Part shown: piece by piece, positions 46,857-52,109 of the stretch | How the letters are laid out: the number at the start of each line of letters is the position of its first letter | Position numbering within the stretch: the stretch's first letter is position 1 | Origin: Thiobacillus sp. | GTDB taxonomy: Bacteria; Pseudomonadota; Gammaproteobacteria; Burkholderiales; Thiobacillaceae | Direction of reading: 5' to 3' | NCBI GenBank assembly: GCA_016124745.1 | Contig: WGNC01000013.1 | Span: 2,378 to 66,377, forward strand | DNA length: 64,000 bases | Program-made: the position numbers and the translations under genes | Notes under the pieces: model-generated | Seen by the model: only the letters and a program-made list of their open reading frames with translations | What the model was told of the DNA's origin: nothing | Database searches by the model: none

Positions 46857-48012
46857 GCCCGCCTCCGCTGCGCGTGTCGATTCGATCGCGCCCTTCCACG
46901 TCATGGCCATCCTCGCGCGAGCCAAGGCACTTGAAGCAGCCGGGCGCGATATCATTCACCTGGAAATTGGCGAACCCGACTTTCCCACCCCCCAACCCAT
47001 CATCCAAGCGGGCATCGAAGCGCTGCGCGCCGGACATACCCATTACACGGATGCACTCGGCCTGCCCAGCCTGCGCGAGGCCATTGCCAGGTTCCATCAG
47101 ACGCGCTGGCATGCCACGATCGACGCGGAACGCATCCTGGTCACCCCCGGTGCATCCGGTGCCCTGCTGCTGGCACTGGGGCTTCTGGCAGGACCCGGCG
47201 ATGATGTCTTGATGGCCGACCCGGGCTATCCCTGCAACCGCCATTTCACGGAATTCTGCGATGCGCGGCCCGCGACGGTCCCGGTCGATGCCACAAACGG
47301 CTTCCAGCTCACCCTGGATCTGATCGAGCAGCATGCCACCCCCGCCACCCGCGCCGTACTGATCGCCAGCCCGTCCAACCCCACCGGAACCGCCGTTGCG
47401 CCCGACGAACTCGCACGTATTCATGGCTGGTGCCGCGCGCATGACGTCGCCTTGATTGTCGACGAAATCTATGTGGCACTGACCTATGACGGCACTGAAA
47501 ACACGGCCGCTCATTGGGATGATGTGTTCGTCATCAACAGCTTCTCAAAATACTTTCTGATGACGGGCTGGCGACTGGGCTGGCTGACCGCACCAGCGTG
47601 GGCAGTGCCCGCCCTGGAACGGCTGGCGCAGAATCTGTATCTGGCGGCGTCGACACCGGCTCAGCATGCGGCGCTGGCAGCCTTCCTACCCGACACCCTG
47701 GATGAACTCGAAGCGCGCAAGCACGAGTTGCGCACCCGGCGGGATTTTCTGCTGCCCGCCTTGCGCGAGCGCGGCTTCGTCATTCCGGTCGCGCCCGAGG
47801 GCGCATTTTACCTTTACGCCGATTGCAGCCGTTTTGCGTCGGACAGCCAGGTCTTCGCCAGCCAGTTGCTCGAACTTGCCGGGATTGCCGTGACGCCCGG
47901 AATCGACTTCGGGTCGCATCATGCAGCCCGCCACATGCGGGTTGCCTATACCCAGCCTCTGCCACGCCTGGTCGAAGCGATGGCGCGGCTCGATCGTTTT
48001 CTCCAGACATAA
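46843..48012 (+). CDS. PLP-dependent class I/II aminotransferase
   Basis: IHLEIGEPDF, SPSNPTG, DEIY, NSFSKYFLMTGWRLGW. Confidence 0.92.
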   Translation: MSRPKPASAARVDSIAPFHVMAILARAKALEAAGRDIIHLEIGEPDFPTPQPIIQAGIEALRAGHTHYTDALGLPSLREAIARFHQTRWHATIDAERILVTPGASGALLLALGLLAGPGDDVLMADPGYPCNRHFTEFCDARPATVPVDATNGFQLTLDLIEQHATPATRAVLIASPSNPTGTAVAPDELARIHGWCRAHDVALIVDEIYVALTYDGTENTAAHWDDVFVINSFSKYFLMTGWRLGWLTAPAWAVPALERLAQNLYLAASTPAQHAALAAFLPDTLDELEARKHELRTRRDFLLPALRERGFVIPVAPEGAFYLYADCSRFASDSQVFASQLLELAGIAVTPGIDFGSHHAARHMRVAYTQPLPRLVEAMARLDRFLQT

Positions 48013-48039
48013 AAAAAACCGGCCCGAAGGCCGGTTTTT
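48011..48039. terminator. Bidirectional rho-independent terminator
   Basis: A8-ccggcc-cgaa-ggccgg-T5 between convergent genes. Confidence 0.9.
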
Positions 48040-48057
48040 CTTTACCTGTGCCAGGAA

Positions 48058-48282
48058 TTACTTGGCAGGTTCAGCAGGAGCAGCAGCGTCAGCAGCAGGA
48101 GCAGGAGCAGCTTCCATCGGAGCAGCAGCGTCAGCAGCAGGAGCAGCTTCCATCGGAGCAGCAGCTTCCGGAGCCGGAGCCATAGCAGCAGGCGCTTCTA
48201 CGGGAGCAGCGGCTTCTTCTTTCTTGCCGCAAGCGGTCATGGAAACGGCCAGCAGAGCAGCCAGGAGGACGGAATATTTCAT
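48058..48282 (-). CDS. Small Ala/Pro-rich lipoprotein
   Basis: AAAGG RBS; lipobox MTAC; 36-bp internal repeat (48104-48165). Confidence 0.8.
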   Translation of the reverse strand: MKYSVLLAALLAVSMTACGKKEEAAAPVEAPAAMAPAPEAAAPMEAAPAADAAAPMEAAPAPAADAAAPAEPAK

Positions 48283-48457
48283 TTGATTTCCCTTTACTTG
48301 CAAATATAAAAACCCACACCAGAGATCGGTCCGGGACGTGTAATCCAGCCGACGCGCGGAATTCTAACAAATCGGCAAAAGAAAACCACTATCTACTAAA
48401 AAATTGATCTAGCACTCCTAGGATGTCTCACAATTGCAACAAGCCGCCTTAAATCTC

Positions 48458-48769
48458 TCATTTTCTGGGTGTTTCGATGAACTCGCCCGGCCGTGCAGGC
48501 GAGGGCAATCTTCCCTGATAGATGAAACCGGCACCATAGCGGCGACTGCCATCGGGTGCGGTAATCAGTTCGTTTTCGCTCCAGATCCAGACATGGCCTT
48601 CGCGCGTATCCAGAATGAACGCGCGTCCGCCTCCCCCTCCTTTGCTGCCCACTACGCCTGCCAGTGGAAAAGCCTCGTATCGGCCATCATCGGCGCGTTC
48701 ATCACTTGCCTGCGCAGCGGCCGACAGGGCCAGCACGCCAAATACCATCCATCCTGTGCGCATCTTCAT
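48458..48769 (-). CDS. Hypothetical exported protein
   Basis: Signal peptide ending AAAQA; GRYEAFPL, FILDTREGHVWIW; 21 bp after the hslO-like gene. Confidence 0.65.
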   Translation of the reverse strand: MKMRTGWMVFGVLALSAAAQASDERADDGRYEAFPLAGVVGSKGGGGGRAFILDTREGHVWIWSENELITAPDGSRRYGAGFIYQGRLPSPARPGEFIETPRK

Positions 48770-48790
48770 CCTTCCATTTGCCTGCAGGCC

Positions 48791-49678
48791 CTAAGCGGAA
48801 AAAAGTGCGGCCACGGCCGCCGCATCCAGCACATACTCATGGTTGCAGATATCGTCATGCACCCGGATTTCACCTTGTTCGGCGACAATCGCCTCACATT
48901 CTGCCCGACCGACACTGCGCAGCATGGAATGAATCTTGGGGGGGTCGTACGGGCAGTGATAGGTGACCGGGCGCGGGTCATATACGCGCACGTCTTCTTC
49001 CGGGAACAGGCGTTCAATCAGCTTGATCGAGCCCAATTCGAGCAGTTCGTGTGCTCGCACGGTGTCTGCCAGGACCTGTACCCGGTTCCAACCGTCTGCA
49101 TCGCGCATCGTTGCACCCGGCAAGGCCTGCAGAAACAAACCTGCTGCAGTCTCGTGATTGGCCGCCAGCCACAGGCGGGTAGGCGACTGCTCCGATTGGG
49201 CGAGGTAATGTTCGAATACGGCTGCCAGGGACTCACCCTGCAGCGGTACGTGGCTCTGGTAGGGCTGGCGCATGTCGGCGGTGTCTAGCGTCAGGGTCAG
49301 CGCACCCTCGCCCAGCAAGGCCGAAACGTTTCCCTGTGACAGTTCCTGTGCAGCTCGAGCCATGCCGCGAATTCGCAATTGCTCGTCGCAATCCATCACC
49401 AGCAGCGAGACCGCGCCGTCGCCACGCAGCTGAAAAGTCAGTCGCCCGGCCTGCTTGAGGTTGGCCGTGATCAGCGTGGTCACCACCGCCAGTTGTCCAA
49501 GAAGTTCGAGTACAGGCGCTGCGTAACCGCGCCCTGCCGCCATCTCCTGCCAGGCAGATCCCAGTTGGACCCAGGCACCACGAATGTCGAGTTGTTCGAA
49601 CAGGAAACCGCGCACCCGATTGGGCTGGCTGTGGGCCGGTCTTGATTTATCCGCGTTCAATTTGTCGGTGGCGTTCAA
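48791..49678 (-). CDS. hslO: Hsp33-family chaperone with a degenerate C-terminal Cys motif
   Basis: FLFEQLDIRGAWV, LTFQLRGDG, YQSHVPL, YLAQSEQ; TTG start overlaps the upstream TGA (start uncertain). Confidence 0.82.
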   Translation of the reverse strand: MNATDKLNADKSRPAHSQPNRVRGFLFEQLDIRGAWVQLGSAWQEMAAGRGYAAPVLELLGQLAVVTTLITANLKQAGRLTFQLRGDGAVSLLVMDCDEQLRIRGMARAAQELSQGNVSALLGEGALTLTLDTADMRQPYQSHVPLQGESLAAVFEHYLAQSEQSPTRLWLAANHETAAGLFLQALPGATMRDADGWNRVQVLADTVRAHELLELGSIKLIERLFPEEDVRVYDPRPVTYHCPYDPPKIHSMLRSVGRAECEAIVAEQGEIRVHDDICNHEYVLDAAAVAALFSA

Positions 49679-50931
49679 TTGAGTTGCACCCGCTCTCCCC
49701 AAGGCACCGCGCCCTTGCCCTTGACCAGCCAGACCACCGGGTAATTCGGCGGCAGCTTGGGAAAATCCCCTTCGGCATCGGTGAAATACACCAGCATGTT
49801 GGGACTGCGGTTTTCCTGCTCGACCCAATCGAATACCGGACGGAAATCGGTACCCCCGCCGCCCTCGATATCCTTGGGAAGCTGCATGGTGTCCCAGGGT
49901 TCGTATTCCCACGGCGCATTTTCTGCGACATGGTTGTCACAGGCCAGCAGCGTCACCTTGGCCCTCACCTGCCCTTTCAGCGCATCGAGTTCGGTGACAA
50001 ACTCGCGCAACTCTTCATCGCTGATCGACCCGCTGGTATCGATCGCCGCCACCACGTCCAGGCCTTCGCTCGACAGCCTCGGCAGCAGCGCATCCCCTTC
50101 GCGACGTGAAGGCCGGCGCCACGAATAGTCGTCGCGCTGGTTGACGGCGAAGAAGCGCGCCAGCAAGGCGCGCCACGGCAGGCTGGGAGCCAGGAGGCCA
50201 TCGACCCAGCGCATCATCGATTGCGACAGCTTGCCGGCCTGGCGCGCGGCCTGGGCAGCAGCGGCCAGACGGTTTTTCCATTGCTCGGACAGCTCCTCGC
50301 GTTCGCTCGGCGACAACTCGCTGGGCTTTTTCGAAGCCTGGCTGGCGCTGCCCTGTTGCTGCTCGGCCTCGCTCTGACCTTCCTTGCCCTGGCCACCCGG
50401 CTCGCCGGCGTCGGGGTCATCCTGGCGCTCGTTCTCGTCGGGGCTGGCACCCGATTCGTTGTCGTTGTCGAACAGGTGCTGGTCGAAGGACTCTTCCGGC
50501 GTGTCCTCGGGAATCAACGGGTAGATTTCTTCGGCCGACAGCGTCATGAAATTCTGGTCGGCGAGAATACCGTGCAGTGGCGGCTTCAGGCCTTCCTCTA
50601 TCAGGATGAGATTGACCGCGTGGTCGCATGCCACATCCCACCGACGCTTGACGCGATGGTTGCGTCGATGGGGATGGCCCATGGCGCAGTGCATGGCCTC
50701 GTGCGCCAGCACGAACTGCGTCTGCGCGAGATTGAGATTGTCGATGAACCCGGGATTGAAATAGAACGCCTGTGCATCGGTGCCGGTGGTGGCGCACCAG
50801 TCTCCCCCGACCTTAAGCGGCAGGTGCATCACCAATGCGCCGAGAAACGGCCGCTCCATGATGAGTCGGGTGCGCGCGGCCGCGAGTTTGGTCAGGATGG
50901 GTTCGAGAGCGGGGTCGGGCTGGTCAGCCAT
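49675..50931 (-). CDS. Putative metallopeptidase-vWA protein (DUF2201-like)
   Basis: ATTGTD..AFYFNP, HExxH (HEAMH), WDVACDHAVN, acidic linker, MIDAS DTSGS, GGGTDFRPVF, YFTD. Confidence 0.85.
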   Translation of the reverse strand: MADQPDPALEPILTKLAAARTRLIMERPFLGALVMHLPLKVGGDWCATTGTDAQAFYFNPGFIDNLNLAQTQFVLAHEAMHCAMGHPHRRNHRVKRRWDVACDHAVNLILIEEGLKPPLHGILADQNFMTLSAEEIYPLIPEDTPEESFDQHLFDNDNESGASPDENERQDDPDAGEPGGQGKEGQSEAEQQQGSASQASKKPSELSPSEREELSEQWKNRLAAAAQAARQAGKLSQSMMRWVDGLLAPSLPWRALLARFFAVNQRDDYSWRRPSRREGDALLPRLSSEGLDVVAAIDTSGSISDEELREFVTELDALKGQVRAKVTLLACDNHVAENAPWEYEPWDTMQLPKDIEGGGGTDFRPVFDWVEQENRSPNMLVYFTDAEGDFPKLPPNYPVVWLVKGKGAVPWGERVQLN

Positions 50932-50937
50932 GAAGAA

Positions 50938-51981
50938 TCAGTGCTCGTACAGAACCAGATCGGTAATGCTGTTGGCCCATTCGGCAAATGCCGGCACGGC
51001 GAACAGCGGTCGCCCGACTGCGCGGTGCAGGTCGGACACCAGCATGACGCCCATTTCGCGCTGCGGAAAGCGCTGCGCGTATTTGAGGATGTTGCCGTAC
51101 ACCACTGCCGCATTGCCGCTGTCTGCCGCCTGCAGGGCCTTGCGCACCAGCGCCGCAGCCACGCCGTATTGCAGGTCGATGCCTTCGGGCACCTCAGCGT
51201 CGGCGCCGTTGATGATGGCATCGAGATCCGGCATTTGCGCCATGTTGTCGACGAAGGTTTTCAGTTCCAGTCCGGCCGATTGGCCGACGCAGGCCATCAA
51301 CGCATCAGCCAGCAGGTCAGTCTGGTCGAATTTCTGCAGCGCGCGGTGGGCGTATTCCCACGAGCGGGGGCTGGGAAAGGCAATCGGCGTGTGTGCCGGA
51401 TCGAAGCTGAACAACAGGTCGGGGCGGAAACGCAAGAAGGCGATGACCCGGGGGTCGATCTCCTCGCTGTGCGCCCAGTCCACCCAGTCATCGAGATTCA
51501 CCTCGACTTCGTAATGGGTGAAGCGGTTGGCCAGCGGGGCGGGCATCGCATAGGTCACGCCACGGTCGCCCTGACGGTTGCCCGCGGCGAAGATCACCCA
51601 GCCATCCGGCACCGTGTACTCGCCCAGACGGCGATCGAGGATGAGTTGGTAAGCAGCGGCCGATACCGTCGGCGGCGCCGAGGTGATCTCATCCAGGAAC
51701 AGGATACCTGACGGGCCATGTCGATCGGCATCCGGCAGCACGGAGGGAATCGACCACTCGACCAACTGGCCGCTGCGAAACGGAATGCCGCGCAGGTCGG
51801 TCGGTTCCATTTGCGACAGGCGGATATCGATCAGCTGCACACCATGCTGTTGGGCAATCTTGGCGACGATCTGTGACTTGCCTACGCCAGGCGGCCCCCA
51901 CAGCATGACAGGGGTATGGTGGCCGTCGGCGGCACTTTCGAATTCGCGGTCGAGAATGGTTTCGATGTGGGAGGGACGCAT
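50938..51981 (-). CDS. AAA+ ATPase (MoxR/dynein-related type)
   Basis: Walker A GPPGVGKS, DLRGIP, Walker B ILFLDE, AAGNR, PLANRF, PSPRSWE. Confidence 0.9.
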   Translation of the reverse strand: MRPSHIETILDREFESAADGHHTPVMLWGPPGVGKSQIVAKIAQQHGVQLIDIRLSQMEPTDLRGIPFRSGQLVEWSIPSVLPDADRHGPSGILFLDEITSAPPTVSAAAYQLILDRRLGEYTVPDGWVIFAAGNRQGDRGVTYAMPAPLANRFTHYEVEVNLDDWVDWAHSEEIDPRVIAFLRFRPDLLFSFDPAHTPIAFPSPRSWEYAHRALQKFDQTDLLADALMACVGQSAGLELKTFVDNMAQMPDLDAIINGADAEVPEGIDLQYGVAAALVRKALQAADSGNAAVVYGNILKYAQRFPQREMGVMLVSDLHRAVGRPLFAVPAFAEWANSITDLVLYEH

Positions 51982-52109
51982 GTGTCGTTCAAAACAACGA
52001 TGAATGGCCTTGAATCATAATCGCTCGCGCGTCCGGCTTCCAGCTTCAGCCTTGATCGATGTGGGGAGATTTTGTTACCGTGCACCAACCGGAATGAGGC
52101 GAATGCAGC

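Follow-up and report, generated by a model that had tools for sequence, protein, structure and literature searches.

In the NorQ–NorD, CbbQ–CbbO, RavA–ViaA and CoxD–CoxE systems, an AAA_5/MoxR-class ATPase is found beside a partner that carries a domain of the von Willebrand factor A (vWA) type with a complete metal ion-dependent adhesion site (MIDAS). A pair of this kind is present in Thiobacillus sp. (GenBank assembly GCA_016124745.1), within a stretch of 64,000 nt (contig WGNC01000013.1, positions 2,378–66,377; contig C35 of a 3.35-Mb assembly; hereafter the window). There, the genes for a MoxR-class AAA+ ATPase and for a DUF2201 protein with a zincin-like and a vWA domain are followed on the same strand by hslO, which encodes Hsp33, and by a small open reading frame (ORF). 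A preliminary description, made from the window alone, had read these four genes as a protein quality-control module. Our analysis suggests that the locus consists of two units of different age, the old AAA–DUF2201 pair on one side and hslO with the gene for a small, putatively secreted orphan protein on the other. We consider it fairly probable that it arose by operon fusion, which joined the MoxR/zincin–vWA pair to a cysteine-poor housekeeping hslO and an orphan gene, and that the four genes do not form a dedicated machine.

The likeness to the NorQ–NorD type extends to the ATPase sequence, for which midasin AAA domains and NorQ are the nearest relatives among solved structures. However, we know of no HExxH zincin-like domain at the N-terminus of NorD, CbbO or ViaA, whereas the DUF2201 protein has one, and unlike in the NorQ–NorD-type pairs, no target enzyme is encoded nearby. 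Both proteins also match phage families over their full length and in the same domain order, namely PHROG 1297 ('ATPase', E 4e-95) for the ATPase and PHROG 1314 (E 5e-85) for the DUF2201 protein. Homologues are encoded in 656 records of phages, among them Bacillus phage G and N4-like ones, and identity to the phage proteins is only 25–34%. In contrast to the phage pair, the one in the window is a stable chromosomal pair of free-living sulfur oxidisers, with conserved synteny and no phage genes around it. PHROG 1314 is labelled 'HNH endonuclease', a name copied into many phage records that does not fit the HExxH zincin and vWA content of the family. Finally, the MoxR–vWA ternary conflict systems (PMC7159879) share with this locus a MoxR–vWA core and a variable third gene, but the VMAP, inactive STAND, FtsH and beta-propeller components are all absent here, as is any effector or diversity-generating retroelement context; the neighbours here are a NUDIX gene, hslO and the orphan ORF. 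The bpMoxR model of Pfam gave 19.1 bits on the ATPase against a cut-off of 27. In PADLOC, nothing matched the DUF2201 protein, and the ATPase gave P-loop matches that were weak and partial; for want of a meaningful match a defence-system reading was rejected.

The AAA–DUF2201 pair

The four ORFs reported in the preliminary description were all reproduced on the minus strand at 48458–51981, in the order AAA, DUF2201, hslO and 103-aa ORF, separated by 6 bp (AAA/DUF2201), a 4-bp overlap (DUF2201/hslO) and 21 bp (hslO/103-aa ORF). Profiles from Pfam, NCBIfam, PHROG and PADLOC were searched for family membership, and AlphaFold models and a search of Protein Data Bank (PDB) folds were used for structure. 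The identities proposed for the first three genes were borne out by Pfam (AAA_5, DUF2201_N plus DUF2201, and HSP33, respectively), and the Walker A and B motifs, HEAMH and the MIDAS sequence DTSGS are all present in the translations. The first gene (50938–51981) encodes the 347-aa MoxR-class (AAA_5) ATPase, in which GPPGVGKS is the Walker A and ILFLDE the Walker B motif, and scored 38 bits with AAA_5 (cut-off 22) and 35.8 bits with the AAA model.

The second gene (49675–50931) encodes the 418-aa DUF2201 protein, in which HEAMH occupies residues 77–81 and DTSGS residues 298–302. DUF2201_N (PF13203) matched at 160 bits (cut-off 23.2, E 1e-46) and, C-terminal to it, the vWA-like DUF2201 model (PF09967) at 87 bits (cut-off 26.4, E 1e-24), giving an architecture of an N-terminal zincin-like domain (HExxHxxxxH), a disordered linker rich in acidic residues, Gly and Gln, and a C-terminal vWA domain. 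Residue conservation was judged on 20 diverse and 42 orthologous sequences. The zincin residues H77, H81 and H86 are invariant, as are D298, S300, G301, S302, T361 and D385 of the vWA domain, all of which except G301 make up a full MIDAS; at least 90% of orthologues retain the catalytic Glu, E78, which is substituted in some distant paralogues. In the AlphaFold model (mean pLDDT, the per-residue confidence score, 75), the acidic linker at residues 156–197 is disordered, the C-terminal half matches vWA/I-domains (ArnB VWA2, E 2e-4) and the N-terminal half shows a weak match to selecase, a minigluzincin (4qhi, E 0.04). By sequence, the DUF2201 protein matched none of the solved structures.

DUF2201 is present in a single copy in the assembly. 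A scan of GTDB species genomes yielded 80 loci, 16 of them of the Thiobacillus type (at least 82% identity) and 64 others with 49–60% identity, and their gene contents were compared by clustering every six-frame ORF across these loci. In 76 of the 80, AAA lies next to DUF2201, upstream of it and on the same strand, and the remaining four loci begin at a contig edge. The AAA–DUF2201 pair is a real, old and tightly coupled two-gene module.

Linkage of hslO to the pair within and outside Thiobacillus

The preliminary description had proposed gene-order conservation across genomes as a check of its quality-control reading. Within Thiobacillus the order is conserved throughout. The DUF2201 gene was found in all 30 other Thiobacillus species genomes with 79–97% identity, and in every one of them the gene for Hsp33 (74–87% identity) comes immediately next, with contig and strand shared, bringing the count to 31/31 species with the genome of the window. 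Likewise, all Thiobacillus-type loci of the GTDB scan except the truncated L082 run into hslO, which is cut by the contig end in L083 and L085.

Outside the genus, the picture was the reverse. DUF2201_N is encoded in 59 of 201 genomes drawn evenly from the same order, and 56 of these were checked for the position of Hsp33; hslO stands beside the pair in none of the 56, one or two contig-edge cases being not strictly excludable. Of these 56 genomes, 44 encode Hsp33, always on a different contig or no closer than 150 kb; three other genera of the same family contribute four of the 44. Hsp33 is lacking from the remaining 12, several of which are 97–100% complete. A sample of 401 genomes from the whole phylum contained DUF2201_N in only 13, and in the 10 that were new relative to the order sample, hslO was again never beside the pair (0/10). 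Among the 64 closest non-Thiobacillus loci, no hslO was detected within 7 kb of the pair, and the hslO genes of the sister genera have no neighbour in common with the window. The gene order therefore holds in one genus and is absent everywhere else that was sampled. The preliminary description had named a missing hslO linkage in other genomes as refuting its quality-control reading, and outside Thiobacillus this is what was found; what stands of that reading are the gene identities and a probable operon.

The simplest history is a single lineage-specific event at the base of Thiobacillus, in which the only hslO of the genome would have come to sit directly after the DUF2201 gene. As judged from these genomes, the four-gene block looks specific to Thiobacillus, and its layout should not be generalised as a quality-control machine.

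Hsp33 and the loss of half of its zinc switch

The hslO gene (48791–49678, minus strand, TTG start) encodes a 295-aa protein that matches Pfam HSP33 (PF01430) at 231 bits (E 2e-68) over profile positions 3–272 of 273. The assembly has no second Hsp33 gene, and this one is therefore the housekeeping copy, not an extra paralogue. In E. coli, hslO comes after hslR, whereas in Thiobacillus it follows the MoxR–vWA pair.

We aligned the protein with E. coli Hsp33 (PDB 1i7f/1hw7), a holdase with a zinc-centred redox switch. The domain match spans the whole length, with good conservation in the N-terminal and linker regions. However, two of the four zinc cysteines are replaced, with CxC changed to C-P-Y and CxxC to D-D-I-C (C234 to Y and C265 to D in E. 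coli numbering), and the score with the NCBIfam HslO equivalog, 203.7 bits, falls under the cut-off of 244. The word 'atypical' in the preliminary description is thus justified. The cysteine loss is rare: among 1579 Hsp33 sequences in a published survey, fewer than 10 lacked the second cysteine, and according to the same study an algal Hsp33 without one cysteine no longer binds zinc and is more easily activated (PMC7423844).

All four other Thiobacillus sequences that were aligned likewise have the two-cysteine form. Genomes with an unlinked hslO show the same pattern, HCP[YE]D ... DD[IL]CN, both within the same family (G057, G108 and G153) and in another family (G025, G081 and G174), while all four cysteines are kept in one same-family genus (G196) and in all 18 other alignable genomes; the canonical form was seen in all other families sampled. 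Thiobacillus thus shares the variant with two other genera of its family and with a second family. Since an unlinked hslO can also encode the cysteine-poor Hsp33, the variant is not an adaptation to this operon; by these alignments, the loss of half of the zinc switch is a trait of a clade whose limits differ from those of the operon. This clade could be examined for a different mode of Hsp33 activation. Sequences of the two-cysteine form are at 48791–48960 of the window and in L043, L045, L047, L053, L063 and L064.

The small orphan ORF

The fourth gene (48458–48769, minus strand) is preceded by the ribosome-binding site GGAAGGA and encodes 103 aa with a signal-like N-terminus ending in AQA|SD. 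No match was obtained in Pfam, NCBIfam, PHROG or PADLOC. The ORF was present in 12 of 12 sampled Thiobacillus and in 0 of 69 genomes from 14 other genera of Thiobacillaceae, and by this distribution it is an orphan restricted to Thiobacillus. Its mature part is conserved as RYQALPLAG...GHVWIWSENE...RRYGxGFIYQG, and its offset from hslO is −4 to about +65 nt in most Thiobacillus and +162 nt in one. The AlphaFold model has a four-stranded beta core (pLDDT 68), for which no match was found among PDB folds. The 'small exported protein' of the preliminary description is therefore confirmed as an ORF with a signal-like N-terminus, while its export rests on a signal peptide recognised by eye.

Junctions and regulatory sequences

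The 4-bp overlap between DUF2201 and hslO joins the TTG start of hslO to the TGA stop of DUF2201, and it depends on TTG being the start. The TTG arises from the conserved ...Asn-TGA ending of the DUF2201 gene, and at −4 it is the sole possible hslO start codon in several Thiobacillus species, which supports its use; the first 15–20 codons of hslO vary in sequence and length among Thiobacillus.

The divergent intergenic region between NUDIX and AAA (51982–52109) is the likely promoter region of the unit. Alignment of this region from 17 Thiobacillus species revealed two conserved blocks. The first is ACAAAATC(C/T)CCCCA, at window 52075–52062 on the minus strand, and the second is CTGGA-N17/18-TAT(C/G)AT, with a −10-like box at 52019–52014, 32 nt before the ATG of AAA. 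A strict sigma-70 promoter scan found no site. The sigma-32 pattern CTTGAA-N12-17-CCCCAT had no match anywhere in the window, and the CCCCAC-like block upstream of AAA, which is conserved, lacks a conserved −35 partner; accordingly, no heat-shock promoter was assigned.

Within the unit, a terminator scan reported a hairpin with a T-run in the last codons of hslO (48806–48824, minus strand). The hairpin encodes the conserved C-terminal AAAVAALF of Hsp33, and the T-run is missing in other Thiobacillus, where the small ORF often overlaps the hslO stop. We therefore judged the signal a by-product of coding and not a functional terminator separating hslO from the small ORF. Over the final 30 codons of DUF2201, the entropy at third codon positions across 26 species was 0.77 against a gene mean of 0.78, and this equality gives no sign of a conserved promoter embedded in the 3' end of the gene. 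Taken at the level of sequence, co-transcription of the four genes in Thiobacillus is plausible.

Some Thiobacillus (L048, L084 and L143) have a 57-bp insert in the NUDIX–AAA spacer, and inserts of 100–220 bp occur at the DUF2201–hslO junction, with sequence such as ...aaaaacagctttgaaccacagag...; both kinds may be small repeat elements.

Neighbours of the pair in other lineages

The genes up- and downstream of the pair change by lineage and include soxYZ, a gene for an M48-TPR peptidase, HDOD–adk and a 385-aa gene with no Pfam match. The betaproteobacterial arrangement is NUDIX (divergent), a 298-aa gene, AAA and DUF2201, often followed by soxY–soxZ. In Sedimenticolaceae, Thiodiazotropha and Chromatiaceae it is a 186-aa gene, AAA, DUF2201, the M48-TPR peptidase and soxY–soxZ, and in Gammaproteobacteria of the Thiogranum type it is htpG ... 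AAA, DUF2201, (385-aa gene), HDOD and adk. At the Thiobacillus site, the 298-aa gene and soxYZ are gone, and hslO and the orphan ORF are in their place; the M48-TPR, cytochrome and soxYZ genes of this genome are on contig C38 (C38:80564-83576).

Outside Thiobacillus, nearly all of the 64 closest orthologues belong to sulfur oxidisers (Sulfuriferula, Thiodiazotropha, Sedimenticola, Chromatiaceae, Thioalkalivibrio, Thiogranum and the Solemya symbiont). In 21 of these loci (among L099–L156), from both Beta- and Gammaproteobacteria and with differing intervening genes, soxY–soxZ lies downstream at 0.2–3 kb and in the same orientation. Within the order sample, 55 of 59 DUF2201-positive and 84 of 142 DUF2201-negative genomes encode SoxY (odds ratio 9.5, p 6e-7, uncorrected for phylogeny). 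On this sequence sampling, the AAA–DUF2201 orthologue group is enriched in sulfur-oxidising Beta- and Gammaproteobacteria, and the association of the pair with sulfur oxidisers and with soxYZ and M48-TPR genes is the more interesting and testable lead on the function of the family.

Two further features of these neighbourhoods were recorded. Loci with htpG upstream are L101, L113, L121, L128, L138, L144, L148, L154 and L159, and in the gammaproteobacterial ones HDOD and adk follow. Since htpG and adk are neighbours in E. coli, the pair standing between them looks inserted into an older synteny. The three Pfam-less genes are exemplified by L105:5002-5901 (298 aa, directly upstream of AAA in Betaproteobacteria), L142:5024-5629 (186 aa, upstream in Gammaproteobacteria) and L133:8212-9411 (385 aa, directly downstream of the pair), and distant homologues of the 298-, 186- and 385-aa genes are found elsewhere in Thiobacillus at C2:52409-53323, C40:28620-29189 and C40:97002-98057, respectively.

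Origin of the four-gene block and alternative explanations

A linkage attributable to a single event, a pair that occurs without Hsp33 in many genomes, and a cysteine-poor Hsp33 that is unlinked elsewhere together argue for a fusion that co-expresses genes. In such a fusion, hslO would now probably be driven by the promoter of the pair, as part of one transcript and with translational coupling through the TTGA overlap. The pair itself would act independently of Hsp33. By analogy with NorQ–NorD, CbbQ–CbbO, RavA–ViaA and midasin, a hexamer of the ATPase may dock the vWA protein, whose MIDAS would grip an acidic residue of the client; ATP hydrolysis would then remodel the client, and the HExxH zincin domain, with its conserved Glu, would probably cut the client or a linker. 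This scheme draws on the literature on MoxR–vWA systems (PMC9976466, PMC13036017 and PMC7159879). As the evidence stands, an attractive operon is to be taken as a genus-level fusion and not as a basis for generalisation.

Several observations weigh against the fusion account or parts of it. The four-gene block is unbroken in 31 Thiobacillus species despite Hsp33 identities down to 74% and a changing gene content past the small ORF; selection for co-expression, or a real partnership, could account for this. In four Thiobacillus species (L037, L087, L094 and L143), the DUF2201–hslO junction holds an insert of 100–220 bp, which could carry a separate promoter. Around the pair in other lineages, htpG lies 1.7–3 kb upstream in 9 loci and the M48-TPR peptidase directly downstream in 18, and a general chaperone or protease theme is conceivable. 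As for the proposed cutting step, our literature search found no functional study of the DUF2201 family, and no demonstrated function or peptidase activity for any of its members.

The pair may instead be an accessory of sulfur oxidation, for example in the cytoplasmic maturation or proof-reading of the SoxYZ carrier, which is exported by the twin-arginine translocation (Tat) pathway, or of another enzyme specific to sulfur oxidisers, with hslO as an unrelated passenger in Thiobacillus. We regard this as unlikely, though deserving of attention. The sulfur-oxidising hosts of the closest orthologues, the downstream soxY–soxZ in Beta- and Gammaproteobacteria and the co-occurrence with SoxY all point in this direction, as does the twin-arginine signal RRNVLK of Thiobacillus SoxY, and in M. 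tuberculosis the export of RipA by the Tat pathway is reported to require a MoxR ATPase (PMC4810496). However, SoxY is common in the order (69% of the sample) and the co-occurrence statistic ignores phylogeny; sampling of nearest orthologues favours relatives of similar lifestyle; homologous pairs are common in phages and non-sulfur bacteria; and the soxYZ and M48-TPR genes of Thiobacillus are on another contig.

The dedicated quality-control machine, in which Hsp33 would hold clients, the MoxR ATPase would remodel them through the vWA adaptor, the zincin would degrade them and the exported protein would be an accessory or a substrate, is in our view doubtful. Its appeal lies in the tight spacing with the 4-bp overlap, the linkage retained in 31/31 Thiobacillus species, an Hsp33 that could need other control without half of its zinc switch, and the nearby htpG or M48-TPR genes of other lineages. 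Moreover, according to a preprint, EF-Tu is bound by reduced Hsp33 and thereby driven to aggregate (10.1101/492876), and on that report a link between Hsp33 and client degradation is not far-fetched. Against this, the linkage occurs in none of 130 pair-bearing genomes or loci outside Thiobacillus, 12 pair-bearing genomes have no Hsp33, the cysteine-poor Hsp33 is unlinked in relatives, four Thiobacillus species have the spacer of 100–220 bp at the junction, and the small ORF is a genus orphan whose signal peptide would place its product in a different compartment. If the four genes did cooperate, an ATP-independent stress holdase would be linked to an ATP-driven remodeller and a peptidase, and the large DUF2201/MoxR family of phages and bacteria would gain its first client pathway. 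A narrower version, to which we give little credence, is that the two-cysteine Hsp33 was recruited as a client-holding third component and passes clients to the vWA MIDAS for ATP-dependent remodelling or cutting; this would amount to a chaperone-coupled protease pathway not described for Hsp33.

Finally, it is highly improbable that the pair is a phage-derived or mobile conflict or defence cassette that landed beside hslO: the strong, full-length PHROG 1297 and 1314 matches and the 656 phage records, N4-like phages included, speak for it, but PADLOC and bpMoxR gave the poor results described above, the pair occurs as one chromosomal copy whose synteny with NUDIX is stable in many genera, it is carried by 31/31 Thiobacillus species with 79–97% identity, its GC content resembles that of its surroundings, and neither an integrase nor repeats are nearby.

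Genes downstream of the unit

After the 103-aa ORF, an AT-rich spacer of about 150 bp leads to an 81-aa lipoprotein-like ORF at 48058–48303 (minus strand), with a signal peptide ending in ...MTAC and a repetitive body rich in Ala, Pro and Glu. A strong hairpin with a T-run lies downstream of it at about 48010–48050, and the 81-aa ORF looks like a unit separate from the small ORF.

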